Shown here piece by piece: positions 2,790-54,054 of a stretch of 64,000 nt of DNA. The notes under the pieces were generated by a model. The model saw only the letters and a program-made list of their open reading frames with translations, was not told the origin of the DNA and made no database searches. Every line of letters starts with the position of its first letter. Positions within the stretch are counted from its first letter, which is position 1. This stretch comes from a virus (Duplodnaviria; Caudoviricetes): positions 489 to 64,488 of the IMG/VR virus record IMGVR_UViG_3300010401_000038; one strand, given 5' to 3'. A program made the translations under genes and the position numbers.

Positions 2790-3169
2790 GCGGAGACCGG
2801 ACCTGCGTCTCCCTCTACGAGTTCGGGCCGGACGGGACCCTGGTTTTCGTCGGGGCCAGTGAGAGCCCGTCGTTCAAGGGACGCACCGAGGATCTCCCGA
2901 GCCTGATCGATGTCCACCTGCGGCACTCGTTCCAGTTCATCGGGCGCACCCACGGCAAGAGCGAGCGGTGGCTCGCGCAGCGGGACGCCGCGCCGATCAC
3001 CCTGACCGACGGCCTCAACTACAGCCCCGAGTACGTCAGGACGGTCGGAGGGGGCGAGGGCGGAGCGGTGTGCTGGTGCGCGACGCCGACCCGCGGCGCG
3101 GACGATAAGACGATCATCGGTTGCGACTTCCCGTGCGGGTCATGCGAGAAGTGCGTCGTCACGGGATGA
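2678..3169 (+). CDS. putative exported Cys-containing protein
   Basis: AGGAGG then GTG 2678; hydrophobic N-terminus (TLLALTLALAA); Cys cluster at C-terminus. Confidence 0.6.
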   Translation: MQKILTAWAWTSTAATLLALTLALAAPKTSAPPLPDMSGDRTCVSLYEFGPDGTLVFVGASESPSFKGRTEDLPSLIDVHLRHSFQFIGRTHGKSERWLAQRDAAPITLTDGLNYSPEYVRTVGGGEGGAVCWCATPTRGADDKTIIGCDFPCGSCEKCVVTG

Positions 3170-3627
3170 TCGTCCTCGCTGTCGATCCGGGGACGCGCTG
3201 CGGCTTCGCCATCGGAGGCGTTGGCGGAATATCGGGGACATGGGACCTCGCGCCGAAGCGTGGCGACTCGCCGGGGATGCGCTACATCTACCTGCGCACG
3301 AAACTCGAGTGGGTCCTGAACGCCTATTCCAACCTCGAGCTCGTGGCGTACGAGATGGCACACCACCGTGGCGGGGCCGCGACGGAGTACGCGATCGGTG
3401 TCGTGACCCACCTGCAGAGCTGGTGCGCCGAGCGCAATATCGAGCACGTCGCCGTTCACGCCGCCCAGGTCAAGCGGCACGCGACGGGACGCGGCAATGC
3501 GAAGAAGCCGGAGATGCTCGCGGCGGCCGAGAAGCGGTTCGGGTTCCGTCCGCAGTTCGATGACGAGGCGGACGCGCTGTGGATCCTGGACTACGCGATG
3601 AACGCGATCGCCAAGAGCGGCCAGTGA
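3166..3627 (+). CDS. ruvC: RuvC-like Holliday junction resolvase
   Basis: VLAVDPG, VAYE, VKRHATGRGNAKK, DDEADAL motifs. Confidence 0.9.
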   Translation: MIVLAVDPGTRCGFAIGGVGGISGTWDLAPKRGDSPGMRYIYLRTKLEWVLNAYSNLELVAYEMAHHRGGAATEYAIGVVTHLQSWCAERNIEHVAVHAAQVKRHATGRGNAKKPEMLAAAEKRFGFRPQFDDEADALWILDYAMNAIAKSGQ

Positions 3628-13555: not shown

Positions 13556-13883
13556 GTGAGGATCGTGGTCCGAAGGAGGAGCGCGCAGGGCCCGCCACAA
13601 CCGCTCCATAAAAGCCGACCTGTACTGGGAGAGAAAGTGGGGACGCCTCCTCAAGCTCACCGACCACATCGCGCCGCGACTCACGTTCGACGGCGCCCAC
13701 GCGCACGCCGACCGCAGGGTGACCGACGCGGTGAGGGTGTACCAGACGTGGCTCAGAGGCGAGGACCTTATCGGAGGCTGTCGCGCGGAGATGGAGCGTC
13801 TCGCGACCGGAGGGTACGGGCGCAGGGACGTCAACGGATACAGCGTCAGGAGGAAGCGCGATGGATCTGAGAAGCCTGTGTGA
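13556..13883 (+). pseudogene. hypothetical gene with apparent one-base insertion in AAAA at about 13610
   Basis: MRIVVRRR...PLHK then ADLYWERKWGRLLKLTDH... in a shifted frame with high GC3. Confidence 0.45.
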
Positions 13884-14403
13884 CGCCCTCGAGAAGCCGT
13901 GGTCCGACATGATGAACCACCTTCTCGTCCTCTACTCGATCGCGCGCTACGCCCCCGGACGCAAGGTCGTCGAGATCGGCGTCGACGACGGGTCGTCGAC
14001 GGCGGCGCTGCTCCTGGGGGTCGCCGCGGCGAACGGTCACCTGACGAGCATCGACGTCGCGCCGTGCGACCGCACGCGCCAGGACATCTCGGGTTGCCCC
14101 TTCTACTCCCGCTGGACCTTCATCCAGGGAAAAAGCGCCGAGGTCGCCGGCCAGATCGACAACGACCTGGATGTCGTGTTCATCGACGGCGATCACTCCT
14201 ACGCCGGCACGAAAGCCGACTGGGAGGCGTACTCGAAGAAGGTGAAGATCGGGGGCCTCATCCTGTTCCACGACGCGCTCGCATACCCGGACGTGCAGCG
14301 CGTCGTCGACGAGATCCCCGTCGTCGCCGCCCCCGAGGGATGGTGGGAGAAGGTCACGCTGCCGTGGGGCTACGGCCTCACGATCGCGAAGCGTCTGCAG
14401 TGA
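13861..14403 (+). CDS. class I SAM-dependent methyltransferase (Methyltransf_24-like, small-molecule/sugar type)
   Basis: VEIGVDDGSS, VFIDGDHSY, GGLILFHD motifs. Confidence 0.85.
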   Translation: MDLRSLCDALEKPWSDMMNHLLVLYSIARYAPGRKVVEIGVDDGSSTAALLLGVAAANGHLTSIDVAPCDRTRQDISGCPFYSRWTFIQGKSAEVAGQIDNDLDVVFIDGDHSYAGTKADWEAYSKKVKIGGLILFHDALAYPDVQRVVDEIPVVAAPEGWWEKVTLPWGYGLTIAKRLQ

Positions 14404-28265: not shown

Positions 28266-29261
28266 ATGGGTGCCGTAGCCGACACCTTCACGTTGGCCCA
28301 GTCGGGGTCCGCCTACATCGGCGCAGCCGTCCGCGAGGACCTGCTCGACGTGGTGACCCTCCTGTCGCCGACCGACACGCCGCTGTTCACCATGCTCCGC
28401 AAGACCAAGGTCAAGAACGTCGAGACGTCGTGGCTGGTCGACAACCTGCAGACGGCCGCGTCCAACGCGGTCATCGAGGGATCGACCGCGGCGTTCAACA
28501 CCATCCAGTCCCGTGGCCGGCTGACCAACTACGTGCAGACGTCCCGGCACGCCTACGAGGTCACCGACACGATGCGCGCCGTCGACCCGGCGGGCATCCA
28601 GGACGAGTTCCTGTACCAGATGGGAAAGGGCGCGAAGCAGTGGAAGCGCGACGTCGAGTTCGAGATCATCAACTCGAGCGCGTTCTCCGGCACGACCGCC
28701 TCGGCCCGCCGGGTGCAGGGGATGTACCAGTGGCTCGTCGTGACGTCCGGCTCGGGCAACTCGACCGGCGTCACCGGGTCCAACACCGCCAACCTGATGC
28801 AGGAGGCCGACTTCAACGCCCGCCTGCAGTCCCTCTGGGTGAACGGCGCCTCCTGCGACTACGTGATCGCGACCCCGAACAACAAGGGTCAGATCAGCTC
28901 CAACTACTCCGGGTCGGCGAACAGCCGCCGGAACATCCCCATGACGGAGAACACGGTGGTCAACGTGGTCGACTACTACTTCTCCGACTTCGGGAACGTC
29001 AAGGTCCTGCCGCATCGCTGGTTCTCGTCCGCATCCCCGACGACCGCGACCAACGTCCAGAAGGCGACGCTGTTCGTGCAGTCGGACATGTGGATGATCG
29101 GCATCCTGCGGCCGCCCAAGAACATCCCGCTCGCGAAGCTCGGTTCGTCCGAGCGGGCCATGATCGAGGGCGACTGGACCCTGATCGTCCGCCACCCGTC
29201 GGCGAACGCGGCCCTCACCGGCCACGCCTCCGGCACCGGCCCGAACTTCTCGACCTCGTAG
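28266..29261 (+). CDS. major capsid protein (DUF5309/SU10-like HK97 fold)
   Basis: REDLLDVV..LSPTDTP, W.VD.L, NYVQT, KRDVE, Y.SDFG, PLAK.G motifs. Confidence 0.9.
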   Translation: MGAVADTFTLAQSGSAYIGAAVREDLLDVVTLLSPTDTPLFTMLRKTKVKNVETSWLVDNLQTAASNAVIEGSTAAFNTIQSRGRLTNYVQTSRHAYEVTDTMRAVDPAGIQDEFLYQMGKGAKQWKRDVEFEIINSSAFSGTTASARRVQGMYQWLVVTSGSGNSTGVTGSNTANLMQEADFNARLQSLWVNGASCDYVIATPNNKGQISSNYSGSANSRRNIPMTENTVVNVVDYYFSDFGNVKVLPHRWFSSASPTTATNVQKATLFVQSDMWMIGILRPPKNIPLAKLGSSERAMIEGDWTLIVRHPSANAALTGHASGTGPNFSTS

Positions 29262-42799: not shown

Positions 42800-43891
42800 A
42801 TGGCGCTCCTCCCTGTACAGCCGAACGACCCGCGCTACCCGCAGCCGATCCCGGGTATGCCGCCGATGCCCCCGCTCCCTCCCGCTCCGGTCGTGCCGGG
42901 GGTCGCCGGGCCTCCTGCGTGGGGTGCCATCCCTCCCGGCACTCCAGCCCCGGGGCCGGCCGTCGACTCGCTCCCGTTCGCGAATCCGACGCCCCCCGGG
43001 ATGGCCGCTTCTCCAGCGACGCCCGACCAGCCGCCCTTCGGTGGGACGGAGTACTGGTCGAACGTGATGCGCAAGTACCTCGACGAGATGACGCGCGTCC
43101 AGCCGCCCATCCAGCCGCAGCCGCTCGACAACAGCCAGGTCGCAGCGTTCATGCTCAATCCGTCGATGCGCCCGCAGCTCATGGAGATGTACCACGAGCC
43201 CATGCGCGCGGCGATCGCCAACTCGCGATCGCGCGACGAGATGCTCGGGCGCGCCGTGGGCGGCGCCGGACACATGCTGGCCGCCGCAGGCGAGTACGAG
43301 CAGCGCGCCGCGGAGGACCGCCGCCGCAAGGACGCGCAGGACTACCAGACCGCCCACAGCGCCGCCCTCAACGGCGACGTCAACTTCGATTTCAGCCGCT
43401 TCCCGGAGCTCGCGAGCCTGGCGCACACGAAGGCCGTCCAGTTCGGGACGATCCACGCGCCGGAGGACCGGGTCACGCGACAGGACCGCCTCCGCAAGGA
43501 GTGGGGTGGCCACCTCGACAAGTTGCGCGGCGACATCGACAAGGTGCGCGAGCAGCGCATCCAGCTCGGGCTCAATCCCAACTTCCAGAGCCTCTCGAGC
43601 CTCCTGGTCGGGCAGGACGAGGACGCGAAGAAGTACGCCAAGACGCAGATCGGCGACCTGGCCGACGCGCGCCAGAGTCTCGTCGAACAGGAGGGGCAGC
43701 TCAAGGGCGAGTACGAGTTCGTCGCCCACCTGAGCACGGCGATGGGACCGCACGGCGAGCCGTCGCCCTACGAGAACTTCATCAACCTGTCCGACCCGGA
43801 GCGCCGCAAGATCATGGACGAGTTCGCGCGGGCCCAGGCACGGAAATCCAGCCAAGGTGACGTGGTCCGTGGACCGCTCGCGAGCCCCTGA
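42800..43891 (+). CDS. putative internal virion/ejection protein
   Basis: GAGGT RBS; Pro-rich then helical; position. Confidence 0.65.
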   Translation: MALLPVQPNDPRYPQPIPGMPPMPPLPPAPVVPGVAGPPAWGAIPPGTPAPGPAVDSLPFANPTPPGMAASPATPDQPPFGGTEYWSNVMRKYLDEMTRVQPPIQPQPLDNSQVAAFMLNPSMRPQLMEMYHEPMRAAIANSRSRDEMLGRAVGGAGHMLAAAGEYEQRAAEDRRRKDAQDYQTAHSAALNGDVNFDFSRFPELASLAHTKAVQFGTIHAPEDRVTRQDRLRKEWGGHLDKLRGDIDKVREQRIQLGLNPNFQSLSSLLVGQDEDAKKYAKTQIGDLADARQSLVEQEGQLKGEYEFVAHLSTAMGPHGEPSPYENFINLSDPERRKIMDEFARAQARKSSQGDVVRGPLASP

Positions 43892-46800
43892 TGCCGCCGC
43901 GCGCCGCCGACCCGTTCGAGGCCCTTCGCGGCCAGCTCGGACTGACCGGGGACTCCACCTCCGCCCCGCCTGACGCCGCCCCATCGGGCGACGACCTCGA
44001 GCGCAACTTCGGCCTGCCCCCTGGACTTCTCGACGCCGTGATGGCGAAGGAGTCGGCCGGGGATCCCAACGCGGTGTCTCCGAAGGGCGCGGCCGGCGCC
44101 TACCAGTTCATGCCGGCGACGGCGCGCTCCTACGGGCTCCGGGTCGACCTCGGGAAGGACGAGCGCCTCGACCCGGTGAAAAGCCGGGCGGCCGCGGCCC
44201 GCTATCTCGGAGACCTGCACCGCAAGTACGGCCGTACGGACCTCGCGGTGGCCGCCTATAACGCCGGCGAGCCGGCCGTGGACTCGGCGCGCGGCATCCC
44301 AGACTACCCAGAGACGCAGCAGTACGTCCAGCGCGTGATGGGCCAGCTCGGCGCGCCCGGGGCTCCGGCGCCCGCGCAGACGGCCAGCGACGCGGCGACG
44401 CGGCTGCGCTCACAGCTCGGGCTCGACGCGCCACAGGAACAGCCTGGAACGGACTGGTGGACCCAGGTCGCGGCGGCGCAGCCCCAAGCTGCCAGGCCGG
44501 AGACCGCCGCGGCTCCCGCGCCGCCCGTGCCGGGGCCGGCGACCCCCGACACGGGCGGCTACCAGCCGCCACGCATCACGCCGGGCCCAGGCGGAGACCT
44601 GGCGATGCAGCTCCCCGATCACCCGCCGCAGGGCGAGGTCAACGTGCCGCCGAAGTCGGCCACCGACTACGAGCAGAAGCGCCGCGAGCTCGCGCAGTGG
44701 TGGGAGAGCGGCGGCAAGGCCCTCCCGCCGGACCAGATCCGCCGCCTTGGTCCGGAGTACGCGAAGTACGCCGACTACATCACGGGGAAGGGCGGCCCGA
44801 CGATCGGGCCTCCGCCGGCCGAGTACGACATGACGGGCGGCCAACTCGCGCGCGCCACCGGCGAGCAGGCCGCGGCTGGCGCGCTCGACGTCGTCGCCCC
44901 ATTCGCGCCCAACGCGCCGGATTTCGTGAAGTGGTACCGCCAGGCAGGCCCGACGGGGCCGATCGGCGTCGGCGCCGGGCTCGCCGGAACGCTCGCGGGT
45001 TACATGACCCCCGCCCCCCTGCCGCTCGCCTCGCAGAAGGTGGGGCGCGCTGCGGCGGACCTGATGATCGGGAGCGGCGCAATCAAGGCGGCCAACCAGG
45101 GAGGAAAGGCCCTGTTCGAGGACTCCCTCGACGCGCTGCTCAAGGGCTCCGACGGCCAGGAAGTGCTCGCCGCCGCCGACCGCGCGCGCAAGGCGGCGCA
45201 GGCCGCCGGCCTCAGTGCGGACGAGGCGGAGAGCGCCGCCTCCGTCGCCGCGACCGACCACATCCGCACCGTCGTATCCCCGAAGGCAGCGAAGTTCTCC
45301 GACTCGATGTCGGCCGAGCTGCTCAAGAAGATGTCCGGCCCGGCCCGCGTCTGGGCGGCGAGGAACCTGGTCGAGCCGTCGACCGCTGGCCTGACCGCCG
45401 CGTCCATCGAGTCGGCCGTCGGCGTCGCGCGCGGCGAGATGAAGCCCGACGAGGTCCCTGAGCACCTGGTCGGCACGTCGCTCGGCTTCCTGGTGGCGCA
45501 TCTGGGGTGGCAGGGCATCACGGCGGCCCTCCGTGAGGCCGGCGCCGTTCCGCGCGACTTCGTGGGCCGTGCCCGCCGCGGCCAGGACCTCACCGACGAC
45601 GAGAAAGCCATGCTCGAGCGCCTCATGCAGAGGATCCGTGAAGGGCGTCAGGAGCCGGCCTCCTACGACGTGCCGCCGCAGATGGTTGCAGGCACGCCTC
45701 CACAGGCGCCGACCGGCCCGGTCGCCCCTGGTGAGGCGCTCGAGCGCACCGGACAGGCCCAGGCCCTCGACGCCGTTCTGCGCCCGGTGCGCGAGGCCAA
45801 GGCGCGCGAGGACCTGCGCCAGAAGCTCCTCGCCGAGCGCGCCAGCGACAAGGCCGCCCGGGAAGCCTCCGTGGCCGCCGCGGCGCCGGAGGACGTGTCC
45901 GCCGCGATGGGCCCCCTGCAGGAGCGGGCAAAGTTCTACGTGGAACGTGGGCTCCTGTCCGATGGCGAGGTCCAGGCCGCCGACTCGCCGGACGCCATCG
46001 GGAAACTGCTCGAGACCGCGCAGGCGCGCCGGGCGGAGGAGGAATCGCGAAAGCTCGCCACGATGGCCCAGGACGCACGACTGGCCGGCCAAGGCATCGA
46101 GACGCCACTCCCGACCGCCCCCGAGGCGCCACCGCCCACGCCTGCTCCCACGGGCCCCGTTCCGCAGCCGCCTCCGGTCGAGGAGATGTACATGCCGAGC
46201 CAGAGGGAGCGGTTCTGGATCTCGAGCATCGTGGCGCGCGCCAAGACGGCCGACGAGGCGGTCCAGATGGCGAACGAGCGCCTGACCGCGAAGCCGGGAC
46301 TCGAGAAGTACGTTCGGGGCCGGTTCGCCCTCGGGGCGTCCGCGGCGGCGCGCGCCGGTGGTCTCAAGGAGACGATCGGCAAGGCCAACGCCTCCGAGCG
46401 GGCGCGGCTGGCGGCCGGGGAAAGTCGGACGAAGGTCGCGCGGGACATCGAGGCCCGGGTCGCCGCTGATGCCGCGCACGCCGAGCGCGAGAACCTCCGG
46501 CGCGCCGCGGGGGAGCAGCCGACGGCGATTGGCCGAGCCACGGACCTCGACATCGGGAGGAAGTTCTTCGGGCAGACCGCCGGCACGGTGTCGGCTCCCG
46601 GGGCGCCCCCGCCGGCGGAAACGACCGGAGTCGCACCTTCCCCTCCGCCGCCGGCGGTGGCGCCTCCCGCGCCCGCTCCACCCGCGCCGCTTTCACCGGA
46701 ACCGGCCGTTTCACCGTCCGGTGAAAGCCCCGCTCCGGGTGAAACTCCCGCGCCCGCGGCGCCGCCCGTGAAGGCGGCAAAGCGCACGAAGGAACAGCAG

Positions 46801-49800
46801 ACCTACGTCGAGGCCCTCTCGAGCGCCGTCGGCCAGGTTGGGAAGATGATCATCACGGAGACCGGCCCGATCCGGATCGACCGGCAGGTCGACATCAAGA
46901 AGCGCGGCCAGCGGGATTCGACGACGAGCGACCTCCACCCCGACACGATCAAGGTCCTCAACGACACCGGCCTCGGGATGCTCAAGGGCCTCCTGGTCAA
47001 CAGCGACGGCACGCCGATCGACGAGGCGGCGCAGTACATGTTCGACCGCGGTACGGGGCACTCGGTCGTCGACGCGCGTCGGATGATCCTCGACGAGCTG
47101 ATGAAGATCGCGAAGGACGCGAGCGCCGGGAAGTTCCTGCGCCTATCCGAGCAGCTCCAGTGGGGCAAGCCGATCGACGGTTCCGAGGGCGCGATCGTCA
47201 CGGTGACCGCCGGGACCCTCGTGAAGGGCGACGAGTTCCAGTCCCAGGATGGCGAAGGCTGGACGGTCACGAGCATCAAGCCCGGTATCATCACGATCGA
47301 AAACACCGTCTCACAGAAGATCCGGCGGGTCGACGAGTTCGACATCATCCCGACGCTCGGCGGCGTCTCGAAGGCCGGCGACATGAAGGGGTGGCCGGGA
47401 ACGAGCGAGCCGTACCACGCCTACCGCGCCGGCGGTCGGACGAGCTTCTTCCGCGAGCGGTCGATGCTGGTGCGCGAGGCGCCGGCTGACTGGAAGGCTG
47501 TCCCGAACGACGTCAAGGCGGCGGTGATCCGGACGGGCGCCTGGCACATGCGCCGCGGCGCGCGCGACGTCGAGAAGTTGACCGCGGCGATGGTGGGCGA
47601 CTTCGGCGACCGGGTGCGCCCTTTCGTCCAGAATGTCTTTGCGCTACTCTCAAGGACGCCGGAGTTCGCGTCTCCGGCAGCGCAACCGGCGGGCGCCGCG
47701 GGTCCGACACCAACCACTCCGGTCCCTGTTGGGTCGCCGGGCGTCGCGCCACCGAAGGCACCGGAGGCCCCGGTCGCAAAGCCGGCAACTCCGGCGCCCG
47801 CCGGCGGGGCAGGAGGAGCCAATGTCAGGCCCGAACCTCGACGAACTCAGCCAGCCCTCGGACAGCCCGTTGGAGCAGGAGGAGGGGCGCGTCTACCCGC
47901 CGCCCAGCCCGGAGGACGAGCGCGGCCTGTCCCTGGCGTTGAAGCAGGTCCGGCAGCGCCTCCTCCTGAAAAAGCGGCAAAGGCACCCAAGCCCGAGAAA
48001 GTCGAGCCGACCAGGACCCTCCGACCCGGCGGCATAGCGACCATCAGTCAGGAGCTCCTGCCGCCCCTCGAGCCGGAGTGGAAGTCCATCCTCGATCGCC
48101 TGACCCAGCCCGCCGGACTCGACAAGCTCGGGTCGATGTTCGGGACGCGCCCGCTCGAGCACCAGGTCGAGAACATGGTGCGCATCCTGCGCGCGTTCAA
48201 GCTCGGGCGCGCGCCGGTCCTAGCGGATGGCGGCGGGACCGGCAAGACGCTGTCGGCGATCATGGTGATCAACGAGCACCTGCTCAACAACCCGAACAGC
48301 CGCACCCTCGTCGTCCTGCCGAACCAGGAGATCAAGAAGCAGTGGGAGCGCACGCTCAAGCGCGCCGGCATCGCCGCGCACTACGTCGAGGGCGCGCTGT
48401 CGCCCAAGCCGATGACGGTCAACTTTATGACCTACAAGCGGCTGGAAATCTGGGGGCGCGAGAAGAACCTCGGCCTGATCGAGGGGTTCGCCCCGGACCT
48501 GCTCATCTTCGACGAGAGCCACCGGCTGCGCAATTTCTACACGGGGGACACCGAGACGGCGAAGCTCGGCGTCGCGATCACCGGGAAGACGGATTCCGGC
48601 GAGAACGTCGCGAAGAACGTCCTGTTCATGTCGGGGACGCCGTTCGAGTCGTTCCTGCACACCGCCTACCTCGGCCGTACGGGCCTGTGGGAGCCGAAGA
48701 AGAAGTGGGAGGACTGGATCTTCGACCTGACCGGCATCTACAAGGACCGGGACGGTGGGTGGGTCGGCGCGAGCCCGAAGACGCTGCGCAAGGTGCACGA
48801 GGCGATGTACCGCGGCGGCGTGATGATGAAGCACGAGCTCGACTTCAACGGCATCAAGAACTCGAAGGGCGAGAAGATCACCGTCACCGCAGAGCACCGG
48901 ATGGCGAAAGCGAGCCCGGAGCACGCCGCCGAGCAGCACCGGATGGATGGCGTCTTCGGGTCAGTCCTCGAGGAACTGCAGCAGGACGCCTTCCGCAACC
49001 GGAACCGGATCCGCCTGGTCGCTGGCGTGCAGCACCTTTTCAACCGCTCGATGGACGAGACGGAGAAGGTGCGCCAGGTGATCGAGCACGCCCGCGCGCG
49101 CGCCGCCGAAGGTAAGAGCGTGATCTTCATGCTCCTGCGGAAGAACGAGACGTCCGCGGAGCGGTGGCTGGCCGACTTCGAGGCCGGGAAGCGCGAGTAC
49201 AACCCGAAGTCGTTCATGCCTGAGCTCATCAACATCCTCAAGGACCACGGCATCAAGACGCCATCGCCGGTCGCGACTCTGCGCCGCGCGTTCCCGGACG
49301 CCGTGATGATCACGGGCGACGAGCCGAGCGGCGGCGGCAAGCGTGCCAGCGCGATCGAGCACTTCCAGGCCGGAAAGGCGAAGGTCGCGATCGTGACGAT
49401 GGCGTCTGGCGCCGAGGGGCTCGACCTGCAGGACACGACCGGCGATCACCCGCGCATCATGTACGTCGCCAGCGTCCCGTACACCGCCGGCCAGGCGTCA
49501 CAGGTGGCCTGGCGGCCGTTCCGTCTCGGGAGCGAATCGAACGCCGAGATCGTCTGGCTGTTCACCGACTCGGCCCAGGACTTCCGGCAGGCGCGCCTCG
49601 TCGCCGCGCGTGATCGTGAGATGGGCGCCCTCGTCCGCGGCGAGGTCGAGAGCCCGACGGCTGACGAGCGCGAGCGATTCAATTTCCCGGAGCTCAACAA
49701 GAAGCCGGTCGAGATGCCCGGCCTTGAGGCGTCCCTCGGCCCGGCGGGAACGACGGTGCAGCTCGAGGACTACATGTACGCCGACCTCGTCCCCGACGCC

Positions 49801-52800
49801 GACTACAACGTCAGCGAGCAGCGCCACAAGTACCGCCCGTCCGAATCGGAACAGCCGGAGCTGTTCGGGTCGGTCTCGGGCGTGCGCTACGCGAGCAACG
49901 CGAAGAAGCGTGGCGGGGCCATCCTCTCGGAGGACAGCGCCCTCTGGCACAAGCTCGAGCAGACCGGCGCTGGCGTGAACATCTACCGGGAGCGCATCGA
50001 CGGGCCGGCCGACATCGCGGCGATGTTCGGGTTCCTCAAGGACCGCGCGCGCGAGCACATGTATTTCGTTGGGATGAAGGGCGACAAGCCGCTCGGCGTC
50101 GTGCTGCACGCGATCGGTGGGGTCAACTCCGCGAGGATGGACCCGCACCGCGCCGTGCCGGAGCTCGTAGCCCTCGGAGCGGACGGTGTCTACGTCGTCC
50201 ACAACCATCCGTCCCAGAGCCCGGAGTTGAGCCACGACGACGTGATGATGGCCGCGAGCCTGCGCGACCTACTCGAGCCGCACGGCGTCGCCATGCACGG
50301 CATCCTCGCCACCGACATCGATCGCTTCGGGTTCTCCACTGGGCCGTCACACCCCGGCCCGTTCATCCAGAAGGTCGGAGCGATGGGGAGTCCGATCGGC
50401 CGGCTCAACGAGGTTGCGCTCGCCTACAAGAGGGAGCGCCCTGTCGTCGGCGACATCGCGAGCGGCCCGCTCGACGCGGCGATGGCGTATCACGCCATGA
50501 CGGTCGGCAACGATGTTCGCCAGACGATGTTCATGGCGCGCGACAACAAGGGGCGGATCACTGGCCACATCGCCGTGCCGGCAGAGCCGCGCGAGCTCGT
50601 CGAGCGTCCGGAACACGCCGAGAGCCTCGCGGCCGTGCGCCGCTTCCTGGCGCGCGCCGAACACACGGAGGTCCTCGTCGCGACCAACCGTATCGGCGGG
50701 TCGGTCATAGGGGCCGACGAGGACTGGTTCGCGAACTATCGGACGAAGATGGACTCGACGCTGGCCGTGATGAAGGCCGCCCTCGGCGATTCGGTCAAGG
50801 TCATAGACCTGATCGGCGTTCCCCCTGGCGGGTTCACCGGCGTCGCTCACACGACTTACGGCGGCCGAAGGGAATGGGACCAGGCTGGGGCGAAGAAGAA
50901 GTTCCAGGTCTCGGAGCCGAAGGTCGGCCGCGGGCTCGGTGGCCTGCCGGCGCGCAGCGAGATCATCCGGAAGGCAGAGGAAGCCGTCGGGACGGCGATC
51001 CGCGTCGGTCGCATGGGGCGCACGAGCAGGAGCGTGCTCGGCTTCTACAAGCGCCCCGGCGGCCAGATTCGCCTGCGCACGCCGAACGACATGCGCGTTG
51101 TGCTCCATGAGATCGGCCACCGGCTCGACGACCTCATCTTCAAATCGCACGCTGTCGGTCACGACCTCGGCAGCGTGCGCGCGCTAGCGCGCTTCCGGGC
51201 GGAGCTGCTCCCGCTCGCGACGATCCCGGGCCGCGGTCAGGACCCCCTCCCGGAGGGCTTCGCCGAGTTCATGTACCACTACGTCAACGACCCGGCGAAG
51301 GCGGCGCGCGTCGCTCCGACGTTCTACCCGTGGTTCGAGAGCTACATGTCGAGCGCGAAGGACCTGCGCGTGCTGCACGAGGGCTTCCTCGGCCTCCGGG
51401 ACCTGATGAAGGAGTGGAACCAGGCGGACCCGTGGGAGCGCCTCGGGAGCACCATCGTCAGCGGCGAGATGCCGTGGCACCAGTTCCGCCACGACATGAC
51501 CTGGCGCCACCTCTACTCGTACACGTTCGACCAGATGCACTTCCTCCGGTGGGCGCAGGGCAAGCTCGAGGCGATGGCCGATGGCCAGCCGCTCCGCCAG
51601 GACCAGAACCTCAAGGTCCTCGCGACGACGATCATGGGGCGCATGGGGATCCGCGACATCATGATCGAGCACGGCATGGTCCGCTTCGAGACCCCCGGCG
51701 TGCGCGTCGGGCCCGGGTTGCGCGAGATCGCCGACTCGATCGGCGGGAAGTGGCGCCGCTACGAGACCTGGGTCAAGGCTCTGCGCACGCAGTACCTCAT
51801 GGGCCGGGACCGCATGGGCGCCAAGGAGTTCATCGGAGACGCCGTCAAGGACGCCGAGATCCGCCAGATCGTCGACGACGGGAAGAAGGAGTTCCTGCAC
51901 GTCTTCTCGATGCAGCAGGGCTACTCTCAGGGCCTCCTGCGCTACCTGGTGGGCGCGGGGATGCTGAAAGAGGAGCAGTTCTACGACGTCCACTCGAAGA
52001 ACCTGATCTACTCGCCCTTCTGGCGCCTGATGGACGCGGAGCAGTTCACCCGCCCCGGTGGCCAGCCCGGAGGCGCCGCCGGCGGCCGCATGGCGAGCCT
52101 CTACAGGGGCGTCCTGTACACCCTGCGCGGCAGTTCGCGGGAGACGTTCCCGGCGCTCGAGTCGCTCCTCCGGATGACGAACGTCGTCGTCGACCGGGCG
52201 GAGCGCAACGCGGTCGTCGCGGCGCTCCTGCAGGCATCGAAGCACCTCAAGGACGCTGGCGTCCACATCGCCGAGATCGTTCCGGAGGAGCGCGTTCCAG
52301 TGGAGTTCCGCGTCGGGAGCGTGCTCGCGGCGCTCAAGAACGAGATGGGGATCAGCGCCAAGGGCGTCGACGAGGAGGACCTCGACAAGTACCTGACGGT
52401 ATTCATGCCGTCGACGAGGATGCCGAAGGCGCCGTACGTCTGGGCCTGGATCAACGGCGAGCGGAAGTACGCCTGGATTCACCCGGACGTCTACGACACG
52501 CTGATGAACCTTGAGCGCGAGCAACTCCCCTGGTTTATCTCGTGGATGCGGGCCGGCCCGACCATCGTGCGCGGGGGCGCCGTCGTTCTGAACCCCGGAT
52601 TCTGGGGCTGGAACGAAATCCGCAAGGTCGCGACGACGATTATCCAGAGTCAGGCGCCCTGGCAGAACCTCAAGTTCATGCCGCGCGCCTTCATCGACGG
52701 GCTGCTCAAGACGGACAGGTACTACAAGTACATGGCGACCGGCGCCGCCTACGCGACGTTCGTCAGGCAGAGCGAGGATGCCGTCGCCACAGCCATCCGT

Positions 52801-54054
52801 CACATGCTCGATCGGAAGGAGGGCGCTATCTCCTTCTACGCGAACCCGGTGAACGTGATGCGTGGCGTCTTCACTGTGGCGCAGCGCATCCTGTCGGCGA
52901 CGGACATGGCCCCGCGTATCGCGGAGGCACGCGCCCTCGGGCTCGATCGCGCCACGACTCGCGCGCAGCTCCTTCCGCTCGGCGCCGCGGCCTCCGACGT
53001 CACGCTCGACTACCGCCGCATCGGAACGAAGCTCAAGCTCCTGTCGGGGGTCACGGCGTTCCTGACGGCGCACATGCAGGCGATCGACCGACCCGTGAGG
53101 TTCGCCAAGGACCGTCCGGGGAAGGCGGCGGCGGTCGCCGTGACGGGTTTCCTGCTCGGCCTCATGTACTACCTGCTCAACCGAGACGACAAGCGATACC
53201 AGAACGAGGCGCAGGAGAACAAGGACACGTACTTCTACTTCTATCCGACCGACGATCCGACCGACCCCGGGATCCGGATGCCGAAGCCCTACGCCTACGG
53301 GTGGTACGTGACGGCCGGCGAGCGCACGGCCGAGATGATGGGGAAGCACGACCCGGAGATGCTCAATCAGTTCGCCTGGGACTTCGGTCGCGGGATGACG
53401 CCCAACTTCTTCCCGACCGTCCTGCAGCCGATCTTCGAGGTCGGCATGAACCGGAAGTTCAACACCTGGCGGAAGGTCGAGCCCGACTCCGGGTTGCCGC
53501 AGGAGCGGTCGTTCCCGTGGACGACGGAGACGGCCAAGGACATCGCGCGTGCCCTCTCGAGCGAGGAACGCGGCGTCAGCGGACCCGTCGTCGAGCATCT
53601 GGCCTCCGGGTTCACCGGCGGCCTGGGACTGGACCTCCTCGAGGCGTCCGACAAGTACGTACTCGGTATCCCACCGAAGCAGCGCACGAGCCTCGCGGAT
53701 GAGCCGGTCATCGGGCGGTTTTTCAGCCGGCAGCCTGAGTTCTCGACGAACGCCGTGCGCCGGTTCTACGAGCAGTGGACCCCGGCGGAGAACGCCTACC
53801 AGTCGCTCCTGCAGGCGCGCGCGACCTCGCCGATGGACGAGATGAAGTTCAGGGAGCGGTACAGCGACCTCCTGCGGCGCCGGACGGCGATGCAGGGCGC
53901 GCACACGACCATCAGTCAGGGCTGGAAGGATCTCGACCGGCTCCAGAACGTCCCGATGGACGACGCGGCACGGCAGCGCGCCGAGAACGCCATCGCGCAG
54001 CGCCTCACCTGGGCGGCGAAAATGGGGCTTGCGGCAGCGGACGCCGTAAAGTGA
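43891..54054 (+). CDS. giant polyvalent ejection protein: lytic transglycosylase, SF2 (strawberry-notch-like) helicase, JAB/RadC, HExxH zincin-like, LPD38-like C-terminus
   Basis: KESAG..GAAGAYQFMPATA..AAYNAG; LADGGGTGKT, FDESH, MSGTP, GAEGLDLQD; HNHPS...SHDD; LHEIGH...EGFAEF; RMPKPY...QPIFEVGMN. Confidence 0.9.
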   Translation: MPPRAADPFEALRGQLGLTGDSTSAPPDAAPSGDDLERNFGLPPGLLDAVMAKESAGDPNAVSPKGAAGAYQFMPATARSYGLRVDLGKDERLDPVKSRAAAARYLGDLHRKYGRTDLAVAAYNAGEPAVDSARGIPDYPETQQYVQRVMGQLGAPGAPAPAQTASDAATRLRSQLGLDAPQEQPGTDWWTQVAAAQPQAARPETAAAPAPPVPGPATPDTGGYQPPRITPGPGGDLAMQLPDHPPQGEVNVPPKSATDYEQKRRELAQWWESGGKALPPDQIRRLGPEYAKYADYITGKGGPTIGPPPAEYDMTGGQLARATGEQAAAGALDVVAPFAPNAPDFVKWYRQAGPTGPIGVGAGLAGTLAGYMTPAPLPLASQKVGRAAADLMIGSGAIKAANQGGKALFEDSLDALLKGSDGQEVLAAADRARKAAQAAGLSADEAESAASVAATDHIRTVVSPKAAKFSDSMSAELLKKMSGPARVWAARNLVEPSTAGLTAASIESAVGVARGEMKPDEVPEHLVGTSLGFLVAHLGWQGITAALREAGAVPRDFVGRARRGQDLTDDEKAMLERLMQRIREGRQEPASYDVPPQMVAGTPPQAPTGPVAPGEALERTGQAQALDAVLRPVREAKAREDLRQKLLAERASDKAAREASVAAAAPEDVSAAMGPLQERAKFYVERGLLSDGEVQAADSPDAIGKLLETAQARRAEEESRKLATMAQDARLAGQGIETPLPTAPEAPPPTPAPTGPVPQPPPVEEMYMPSQRERFWISSIVARAKTADEAVQMANERLTAKPGLEKYVRGRFALGASAAARAGGLKETIGKANASERARLAAGESRTKVARDIEARVAADAAHAERENLRRAAGEQPTAIGRATDLDIGRKFFGQTAGTVSAPGAPPPAETTGVAPSPPPPAVAPPAPAPPAPLSPEPAVSPSGESPAPGETPAPAAPPVKAAKRTKEQQTYVEALSSAVGQVGKMIITETGPIRIDRQVDIKKRGQRDSTTSDLHPDTIKVLNDTGLGMLKGLLVNSDGTPIDEAAQYMFDRGTGHSVVDARRMILDELMKIAKDASAGKFLRLSEQLQWGKPIDGSEGAIVTVTAGTLVKGDEFQSQDGEGWTVTSIKPGIITIENTVSQKIRRVDEFDIIPTLGGVSKAGDMKGWPGTSEPYHAYRAGGRTSFFRERSMLVREAPADWKAVPNDVKAAVIRTGAWHMRRGARDVEKLTAAMVGDFGDRVRPFVQNVFALLSRTPEFASPAAQPAGAAGPTPTTPVPVGSPGVAPPKAPEAPVAKPATPAPAGGAGGANVRPEPRRTQPALGQPVGAGGGARLPAAQPGGRARPVPGVEAGPAAPPPEKAAKAPKPEKVEPTRTLRPGGIATISQELLPPLEPEWKSILDRLTQPAGLDKLGSMFGTRPLEHQVENMVRILRAFKLGRAPVLADGGGTGKTLSAIMVINEHLLNNPNSRTLVVLPNQEIKKQWERTLKRAGIAAHYVEGALSPKPMTVNFMTYKRLEIWGREKNLGLIEGFAPDLLIFDESHRLRNFYTGDTETAKLGVAITGKTDSGENVAKNVLFMSGTPFESFLHTAYLGRTGLWEPKKKWEDWIFDLTGIYKDRDGGWVGASPKTLRKVHEAMYRGGVMMKHELDFNGIKNSKGEKITVTAEHRMAKASPEHAAEQHRMDGVFGSVLEELQQDAFRNRNRIRLVAGVQHLFNRSMDETEKVRQVIEHARARAAEGKSVIFMLLRKNETSAERWLADFEAGKREYNPKSFMPELINILKDHGIKTPSPVATLRRAFPDAVMITGDEPSGGGKRASAIEHFQAGKAKVAIVTMASGAEGLDLQDTTGDHPRIMYVASVPYTAGQASQVAWRPFRLGSESNAEIVWLFTDSAQDFRQARLVAARDREMGALVRGEVESPTADERERFNFPELNKKPVEMPGLEASLGPAGTTVQLEDYMYADLVPDADYNVSEQRHKYRPSESEQPELFGSVSGVRYASNAKKRGGAILSEDSALWHKLEQTGAGVNIYRERIDGPADIAAMFGFLKDRAREHMYFVGMKGDKPLGVVLHAIGGVNSARMDPHRAVPELVALGADGVYVVHNHPSQSPELSHDDVMMAASLRDLLEPHGVAMHGILATDIDRFGFSTGPSHPGPFIQKVGAMGSPIGRLNEVALAYKRERPVVGDIASGPLDAAMAYHAMTVGNDVRQTMFMARDNKGRITGHIAVPAEPRELVERPEHAESLAAVRRFLARAEHTEVLVATNRIGGSVIGADEDWFANYRTKMDSTLAVMKAALGDSVKVIDLIGVPPGGFTGVAHTTYGGRREWDQAGAKKKFQVSEPKVGRGLGGLPARSEIIRKAEEAVGTAIRVGRMGRTSRSVLGFYKRPGGQIRLRTPNDMRVVLHEIGHRLDDLIFKSHAVGHDLGSVRALARFRAELLPLATIPGRGQDPLPEGFAEFMYHYVNDPAKAARVAPTFYPWFESYMSSAKDLRVLHEGFLGLRDLMKEWNQADPWERLGSTIVSGEMPWHQFRHDMTWRHLYSYTFDQMHFLRWAQGKLEAMADGQPLRQDQNLKVLATTIMGRMGIRDIMIEHGMVRFETPGVRVGPGLREIADSIGGKWRRYETWVKALRTQYLMGRDRMGAKEFIGDAVKDAEIRQIVDDGKKEFLHVFSMQQGYSQGLLRYLVGAGMLKEEQFYDVHSKNLIYSPFWRLMDAEQFTRPGGQPGGAAGGRMASLYRGVLYTLRGSSRETFPALESLLRMTNVVVDRAERNAVVAALLQASKHLKDAGVHIAEIVPEERVPVEFRVGSVLAALKNEMGISAKGVDEEDLDKYLTVFMPSTRMPKAPYVWAWINGERKYAWIHPDVYDTLMNLEREQLPWFISWMRAGPTIVRGGAVVLNPGFWGWNEIRKVATTIIQSQAPWQNLKFMPRAFIDGLLKTDRYYKYMATGAAYATFVRQSEDAVATAIRHMLDRKEGAISFYANPVNVMRGVFTVAQRILSATDMAPRIAEARALGLDRATTRAQLLPLGAAASDVTLDYRRIGTKLKLLSGVTAFLTAHMQAIDRPVRFAKDRPGKAAAVAVTGFLLGLMYYLLNRDDKRYQNEAQENKDTYFYFYPTDDPTDPGIRMPKPYAYGWYVTAGERTAEMMGKHDPEMLNQFAWDFGRGMTPNFFPTVLQPIFEVGMNRKFNTWRKVEPDSGLPQERSFPWTTETAKDIARALSSEERGVSGPVVEHLASGFTGGLGLDLLEASDKYVLGIPPKQRTSLADEPVIGRFFSRQPEFSTNAVRRFYEQWTPAENAYQSLLQARATSPMDEMKFRERYSDLLRRRTAMQGAHTTISQGWKDLDRLQNVPMDDAARQRAENAIAQRLTWAAKMGLAAADAVK
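47822..48037 (+). CDS. overprinted 71-aa ORF nested in the +1 frame of the giant gene
   Basis: AGGAGGAG RBS at 47811-47818; GC3 bias switches to this frame. Confidence 0.6.
   Translation: MSGPNLDELSQPSDSPLEQEEGRVYPPPSPEDERGLSLALKQVRQRLLLKKRQRHPSPRKSSRPGPSDPAA

Follow-up and report, generated by a model that had tools for sequence, protein, structure and literature searches.

A probable gene nested out of frame in the disordered linker of a giant phage polyvalent protein

Introduction

Can the linker between two domains of a giant phage protein carry, in another reading frame, a second protein of its own? The question is raised by a stretch of viral DNA of 64,000 nucleotides (Caudoviricetes; IMG/VR record IMGVR_UViG_3300010401_000038, positions 489 to 64,488; hereafter the window), in which an open reading frame (ORF) for a phage polyvalent protein of 3387 residues (43891..54054, plus strand) encloses a 71-codon ORF in its +1 frame (47822..48037, plus strand). 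A reading of the sequence alone (the sequence-only reading) had proposed that this inner ORF is an overprinted gene with its own ribosome-binding site, that it encodes an acidic-then-basic peptide under selection, and that this peptide perhaps serves, while particles assemble, as a chaperone or inhibitor of the helicase domain encoded just downstream. Our comparison of codon phase and of the one available homologue indicates that the nested ORF is probably a real protein-coding gene, lying +1 out of frame in the disordered linker that joins the N-terminal part of the giant protein to its helicase module.

Results

Layout and start signals of the nested ORF

The nested ORF is preceded by the Shine-Dalgarno (SD) sequence AGGAGGAG (47811..47818, plus strand), which is followed by CCA and then by the ATG at 47822-47824, leaving 5 nucleotides between the end of AGGAGG and the start codon. 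The frame closes with TAG at 48035-48037 after 71 codons, and the encoded peptide begins MSGPNLDELSQ. All of these elements are present as the sequence-only reading described them, and the ORF lies wholly within 43891-54054, on the same strand and in the +1 frame. The program-made ORF list gives a longer ORF, 47633..48037, since an upstream ATG shares the same open frame. An equivalent layout is found in the only relative of the giant protein that was found, a protein of 3355 residues (P0003) encoded on a separately assembled viral contig of 65 kb (L002): its ATG aligns base for base with 47822, its AGGAGG lies at 13849-13854 with the same spacing, and its homologous ORF of 60 codons occupies 13860-14042. 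At the level of sequence, both genomes provide the nested ORF with a start codon and a ribosome-binding site of its own. The SD of the nested ORF is the strongest among the 12 starts inspected and surpasses the SDs of most of the clear genes in this phage; it is built partly from GGA glycine codons, of which the host gene elsewhere uses 22 against 160 GGC.

Two parts of the ORF can be distinguished. The core (codons 1-51; 47822..47974, plus strand) encodes an acidic, proline-rich head and a predicted helix (residues 30-52), and here only the nested frame appears to shape the sequence. The tail (47975..48037, plus strand) begins with codons 52-60 (RQRxPSPRK), which are conserved and overlie a conserved lysine-rich host-frame sequence, and ends with codons 61-71, which are missing in the homologue, where the stop comes 11 codons earlier. 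The whole ORF is enclosed by an inter-domain linker of the host protein (residues 1260-1394; 47668..48072, plus strand) that is rich in Gly, Ala, Pro and Arg and predicted to be disordered, in line with the open linker noted from the sequence alone. In the AlphaFold2 model of residues 1200-1450, fragment positions 61-195 have no secondary structure and a predicted local distance difference test score (pLDDT) of 35-54, between helical flanks; the model is a modest one, built on a 2-row alignment. The position just upstream of the helicase domain is also as proposed, the helicase Pfam matches beginning at residue 1422, about 117 nucleotides past the nested stop.

Codon-position composition and codon usage

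The composition of the nested site departs sharply from that of its host gene. Host-frame G+C at codon positions 1, 2 and 3 is 0.69, 0.49 and 0.90 overall and about 0.9-1.0, 0.7-0.8 and 0.43-0.53 in 47818-47997, a pattern which, moved by one base, becomes the normal coding pattern. In 90-nucleotide windows, the G+C fraction at third codon positions (GC3) of the host frame is 0.93-1.00 on either side of the site and 0.43-0.53 across 47818-47997, while host codon position 1, which is position 3 of the nested frame, climbs to 0.90-1.00 over the same interval. The span in which the host frame loses GC3 and the +1 frame gains it runs from about 47790 to 47975. The passage of the third-position bias to the +1 frame, as claimed in the sequence-only reading, is confirmed by the sliding analysis, in which the nested site has the lowest GC3 among the 668 windows of the giant gene (0.40, median 0.92). 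L002 likewise has its minimum (661 windows) at the corresponding position, where GC3 of the host frame drops to 0.36.

The contribution of amino-acid composition was assessed by recoding, in which the host protein was held fixed and synonymous codons were drawn from the gene's own usage (20,000 draws per genome). The recoded sequences had a mean GC3 of 0.89 and a minimum of 0.69, and none of the 20,000 was as low as the observed 0.41; for L002, likewise, 0 of 20,000 draws reached the observed 0.35. The composition of the linker thus fails to explain the GC3 shift.

Codon usage gives a concordant picture. With a codon table trained on the remainder of each giant gene, the nested frame obtains a log-likelihood of 0.26 per codon in the window and 0.37 in L002, placing it at the 18th and 41st percentile of true in-frame windows, while the host frame at the nested site scores -0.63 and -0.82, much as ordinary off-frame readings do (means -0.82 and -0.62). 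The top +1 segment of the entire giant gene by codon usage is 47789-47974 (54.5 nats; the next best, 17.9, falls in a Pro/Ala linker), and its counterpart in L002 is 13776-14006 (67.1 nats; next best 7.5). The cumulative score in L002 stays level over the 28 codons ahead of the ATG and then climbs steadily to about codon 50, which indicates that the coding signal begins at the start codon and not upstream of it.

A six-frame codon scan of the whole window revealed no other frame switch within a continuous ORF. It flagged 4 places, namely the nested site, one ordinary gene and two short antisense blips. The flagged interval 13593-13840 belongs to an ordinary gene of 104 codons (13556..13870) between two genes that share a frame, and is not nested; the antisense blips are short and show no drop in the host frame. 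An antisense reading of the nested site itself was likewise rejected, as the minus-strand frames contain stops and score 90-103, and the order of position-1 and position-2 G+C fits the plus strand.

Conservation in a single homologue

A protein search with residues 1100-1700 returned 3 proteins, which were the query, P0003 and a distant helicase of 1893 residues. P0003 is 58% identical over residues 1100-1700 and 60% over the full length, and the two DNAs share 67.5% nucleotide identity and the same frame layout. The nested peptides align without gaps over 60 codons with 34 of 60 residues identical and a BLOSUM62 sum of 167, whereas the host frame, read from these bases, gives 27 of 59 and a sum of 116. 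The other four frames at the site sum to 65-103 and contain stops in at least one genome; of the six, only the nested and host frames are open in both. For an empirical null, every gapless block of the giant-gene pair was scanned with a sliding window of 50 codons. Among the 436 windows there were 6 in which the +1 translation outscored that of the host frame, each of them at 47812-47887; the +2 translation did so in none.

The core and the tail of the nested ORF behave differently at the nucleotide level. Identity in the core (98 of 153) is not above the gene-wide 0.675, as is expected if just one frame is constrained there. In the tail, 23 of 27 nucleotides are identical over 47975-48001; the A-ending nested codons CAA and CCA are retained where the host frame has conserved AAG lysine codons, and of the four single-base changes, three alter the host-frame residue but leave the nested one as it is. 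From this pattern, we take 47975-48001 to be under true double constraint.

Taken across relatives, selection on the nested frame is indicated by the 6 of 436 windows together with the codon and GC3 phase in both genomes, that is, by two genomes. The proposal of an acidic-then-basic peptide under selection has held up, since a homologue at near-saturated divergence repeats the ORF with its ATG and SD, the shift in phase and the distribution of charges; the nested ORF and its ribosome-binding site, whose loss in homologues would have spoken against the proposal, are both kept in the sole homologue.

One further interval was noted in the same comparison. At 49891-49936, +1 identities are slightly above those of the host frame (28-29 vs 24-28 of 50), and 49891-49921 has the lowest ratio of nonsynonymous to synonymous differences (pN/pS) of any +1 stretch in the gene (0.58-0.59); BLOSUM favours the host frame there, and a GC3 shift is absent. 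This signal is probably noise.

Searches for further relatives of the locus were made in several ways. No match to 46800-49000 was obtained by blastn against phage and plasmid records, and when viral, metagenome and genome contigs were scanned for patterns drawn from alignments of the helicase side and of the peptide, a single homologous contig emerged (L002, identical to L003 and L005). Two other returns of these scans were rejected. L004 encodes a stand-alone helicase of 461 residues that is unrelated (29% identity), and a protein of 199 residues from a metagenome-assembled genome of Vulcanimicrobiota (L006, 3935-4534), which contains FEEGRVYPPP, was judged a chance match driven by the search pattern itself (EEGRVYPPP): identity is 43% over 28 residues, the rest is unlike, and no giant ORF lies nearby. 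A split form of the giant protein was not found when residues 962-1258 were searched among shorter proteins. Gene callers missed the nested ORF in both contigs, neither peptide being present in a collection of 5.8 billion protein clusters.

Weighing the alternatives

An SD with an ATG, an open frame and a long ORF would prove nothing on their own, and several of our observations weigh against a nested gene. with both strands of the window counted, there are 13 cases of AGGAGG with an ATG 3-9 nucleotides behind it, so that such pairs are common; alternate-frame ORFs of more than 100 residues are plentiful in sequence of 67% G+C; and the recodings leave the +1 frame open in 92% of draws for the window and 88% for L002, so that its openness is expected. 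ORF length was discarded as evidence on these grounds. The conservation evidence is a single comparison of two genomes, in which the host-frame median of the synonymous difference proportion (pS) is 0.455, near saturation, so that pN/pS does not discriminate: its value at 47812 (Nei-Gojobori) is 0.64 in the nested frame vs 1.00 in the host frame, which fits a nested gene, but three of the 221 windows have a lower +1 ratio still, and the signal is weak and not unique. Differences by nested codon position number 17, 19 and 23, a slight excess at the third. The nested peptide has no homologue in Pfam, PHROGs, proteins of 33-125 residues, tblastn on phages or the ESM Atlas, and hence no functional lead, and the homologous peptide carries a proline at helix position 45. 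No RNA run is listed as carrying the stretch, a result that is silent on expression.

Several of these facts also feed a rival explanation, namely that the +1 frame is open by chance in a G+C-rich linker, that the odd codon positions arise from low-complexity coding of Gly, Ala, Pro and Arg, and that no second protein is made. Besides the frequent openness of recoded sequences, the 13 SD-ATG pairs and the indecisive pN/pS, a second Pro/Ala-rich linker of the same protein (46576-46770) shows a fall of GC3 to 0.62 (46591-46770), with both alternate frames outscoring the host frame in codon usage. In that linker no single frame gains, and most of it is deleted in the homologue (a 21-residue gap), and it looks like a low-complexity effect and not a second nested gene. 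At the nested site, in contrast, GC3 lies at values (0.41 and 0.35) never met among recodings of the same amino acids, one alternate frame alone gains and reaches a normal gene-like codon score, and the +1 frame exceeds host-frame conservation there and nowhere else. Moreover, start codon, SD spacing, peptide sequence and charge pattern have all been retained across saturated divergence. We consider chance very unlikely.

Programmed frameshifting into or out of the nested frame, in place of a free-standing gene, could take two forms. Ribosomes starting at ATG 47822 could slip by -1 at G AAA AAG (47968-47974) and produce a helicase isoform with a private N-terminus of 51 residues, or host-frame ribosomes could slip by +1 behind the internal SD and stop at 48037. 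AAA AAG marks the exact point (47974) at which the nested codon signal stops and the host-frame signal resumes; G AAA AAG is close to a classical -1 slippery heptamer, of which L002 keeps the tetramer A AAG (CGA AAG), and internal SD sequences are known to stimulate frameshifting in prfB and dnaX. However, the heptamer itself is not kept (CTG AAA AAG vs CAG CGA AAG in L002), so that a conserved X XXY YYZ motif is lacking and a cassette of the dnaX or tail-chaperone (G/GT) type was rejected. Past G AAA AAG the nested frame is at least as conserved as the host frame (9 of 11 vs 7 of 12 identical), with the silent changes described above for the tail. No slippery codon lies behind the SD in either genome (GCC AAT GTC and ACC GAT GTC), the +1 frame upstream of the ATG is unconserved and has no codon signal, and host-frame lysine codons are frequent in this region, which makes the coincidence at AAA AAG a cheap one. 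Frameshifting is accordingly a most improbable account of the site.

Still harder to sustain is the idea that the segment is the relic of two compensating real indels in a common ancestor, a stretch once read in frame whose codon bias survives as a fossil. A disordered linker would tolerate such a shifted stretch, and the frame layout is common to both genomes; yet with synonymous sites near saturation a fossil bias should have decayed and been rebuilt in the host frame, separately in each lineage, and it stands at full strength in both. The start codon and SD would have had no reason to persist, and a profile search with the peptide against 1.84 billion representatives, long proteins included, found neither a homologue nor an in-frame copy of the segment. 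A sequencing or assembly artefact of two compensating indel errors, conceivable for a metagenome-assembled viral contig and named as a concern in the sequence-only reading, can be set aside as negligible, since among Logan contigs of three soil runs compared with 47300-48500 the likely source run spans the whole interval and agrees at every base, one from an independent study (X2) matches 47300-48182 with neither differences nor gaps (0 of each) and a third (X3) matches 47869-48019 with 0 differences, and since the separately assembled homologue has the same frame layout.

A real nested gene is thus the reading that we consider probable. Ribosomes would start independently at the internal SD-ATG on the late mRNA of the giant gene. 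The host frame would still be read through and need only remain open and flexible, and this freedom in the linker would allow the nested frame to dictate the sequence. Its openness comes free in the window, where none of the nested codons has T at its third position and no stop can therefore begin at host position 1. A scan of 47300-48300 for sigma-70-like promoters and intrinsic terminators, blind to promoters of other types, found neither.

Predicted product and the helicase module

The nested gene would yield a product of 60-71 residues with a disordered acidic head, an amphipathic helix at 30-52 and a basic tail. Structure prediction of the nested peptide gives a single long helix over residues 30-52 (pLDDT 93-96) and low confidence for the remainder. 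The charge pattern is common to both peptides: positions 1-33 hold 9 acidic residues and 1-2 basic ones, and beyond them there are 11 basic residues and a single acidic one. Both peptides are free of cysteine, and their N-terminus is acidic and not hydrophobic.

As the likeliest mode of action, the helix might dock on a partner protein, for which the adjacent helicase module is the best candidate, and the small protein would then be a co-expressed regulator or escort, a role that we put forward tentatively and hold to be less likely than not. Binding was modelled in one complex prediction that combined the peptide with two parts of the giant protein, the helicase module (residues 1377-1960) and the domain upstream of it (962-1258); all three chains were given 2-row alignments. 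The interaction prediction score from aligned errors (ipSAE) was 0.56, 0.55 and 0.55 in three runs, compared with 0.00 for the best of 3 controls, including 0.00 with the helicase chain replaced; contact agreement between runs was at least 52% and partner pLDDT at least 51. The verdict of the tool is "weak support". In its calibration 58 of 80 solved complexes and 2 of 110 mismatched pairs attained the mark, and scores of 0.60 or below accounted for 7 of the 80 solved complexes and for both passing mismatches. Two points count against binding: by the tool's own account, scores of this class are wrong more often than they are right, and our run, with three chains and its own 2-row alignments, is unlike those of the calibration. 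On this model, binding of the peptide to the helicase module of its host protein is possible but doubtful. Of the suggestion that the peptide is a chaperone or inhibitor of the neighbouring helicase, the binding part has the weak support of this one prediction (ipSAE of about 0.55), and the role itself, in particle assembly or otherwise, is still a guess.

Host gene and phage context

The window is nearly all of a viral contig of 64,488 bases with 67% G+C. Its phage identity is marked by a major head protein gene (28266-29261) and by exonuclease and SbcC-like genes near 58-62 kb. Pfam assigns to the 3387-residue host protein an N-terminal SLT (transglycosylase) domain at residues 38-135, ResIII/AAA_34/DEAD/Helicase_C_4 matches at 1422-1932, representing a helicase of the Strawberry-notch/SNF2-like kind, a RadC-like JAB domain (RadC) at 2039-2136 and LPD38 at 3100-3257. 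The ORF thereby combines several unrelated domains in one polypeptide, an LPD among them, which is the mark of a polyvalent protein. The giant ORF lacks a recognisable SD, and its ATG (43891) shares sequence with the last bases of the ORF before it (42800-43891), which suggests that the giant ORF is translationally coupled to its neighbour.

Discussion

Genes nested out of frame are classical in phages, with phiX174 (E in D, B in A, and K), MS2 L and lambda Rz/Rz1 as examples. In lambda, the o-spanin gene Rz1 lies within the i-spanin gene Rz, in its +1 frame, the two are carried by the same late mRNA, and their products bind each other. The ORF described here resembles Rz1 in being an ORF of about 60 codons with its own start, wholly within a larger phage gene and in its +1 frame. 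Rz1, however, is a lipoprotein with a signal sequence and a lipobox cysteine, whereas the nested peptide has neither a cysteine nor a hydrophobic N-terminus, and its host is a polyvalent protein of 3387 residues and not a lysis protein. Searches of PHROGs and Pfam gave no sequence similarity of the peptide to Rz1, and an o-spanin of the Rz1 type was rejected, a signal peptide and a lipobox cysteine being absent from both peptides. With phiX174 and MS2 L, the locus shares an out-of-frame gene within a phage gene and a small protein without homologues elsewhere. Those are tiny genomes under size pressure; here the phage has a double-stranded DNA genome of about 64 kb, and the overlap lies in a linker seemingly free of host-frame constraint.

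The overlapping genes of phiX174 are also cited in PMC8227390. By its architecture, the nested gene joins the classical out-of-frame phage genes, while the main text of the founding paper on such proteins, by Iyer, Burroughs, Anand, de Souza and Aravind (2017, PMC5512222) describes none in a polyvalent linker, the words "overlapping", "frameshift" and "alternative frame" each occurring 0 times there. In our literature searches, too, no account of a nested gene within a polyvalent protein came up.

In layout, the closest parallel comes from hepatitis B virus (HBV), in which a disordered inter-domain spacer of the polymerase in one frame lies over preS/S, a second gene in another (PMC8227390). 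From sliding-window codon usage, a short gene was proposed to have lain between two genes that were later fused into the polymerase (PMC8227390). The present locus resembles that spacer in that the small gene has genome-like codon usage and the linker is off-type; it differs in the much greater length of the HBV overlap and in having no relation to HBV in virus, host or proteins. By the codon-usage criterion applied to HBV, the nested frame would be ancestral and the linker de novo. This points to a reading of the origin of the locus that we hold to be improbable, in which the small gene is the older, two neighbouring genes were fused by read-through of it, the linker arose de novo, and the peptide docks on the helicase and controls it, possibly keeping the helicase inactive until the giant protein is delivered. 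Read-through would have been open almost automatically, because the third positions of the small gene are nearly all G or C. As regards this genealogy, composition at the present divergence reflects current constraint as much as history, and both frames are known from the same two genomes.

Whichever frame came first, a probable gene nested in the linker has consequences for how phage genomes are read. It provides a concrete and well-supported example of a hidden gene in a double-stranded DNA phage, and points to a hiding place, the disordered linkers of giant multidomain proteins, where the host frame imposes almost no constraint. In G+C-rich phages, a simple scan of codon phase reveals such genes at high contrast, and it is applicable to all polyvalent and other giant proteins of phages. 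Should the small protein indeed act on the helicase module, an injected conflict protein would carry its regulator built in. Should the linker be the younger element, the locus would illustrate the assembly of polyvalent proteins by fusion across intervening genes; and if the small gene is indeed the older, the locus would be a phage counterpart of the polymerase spacer and S gene of HBV, and would represent one route by which polyvalent proteins grow.

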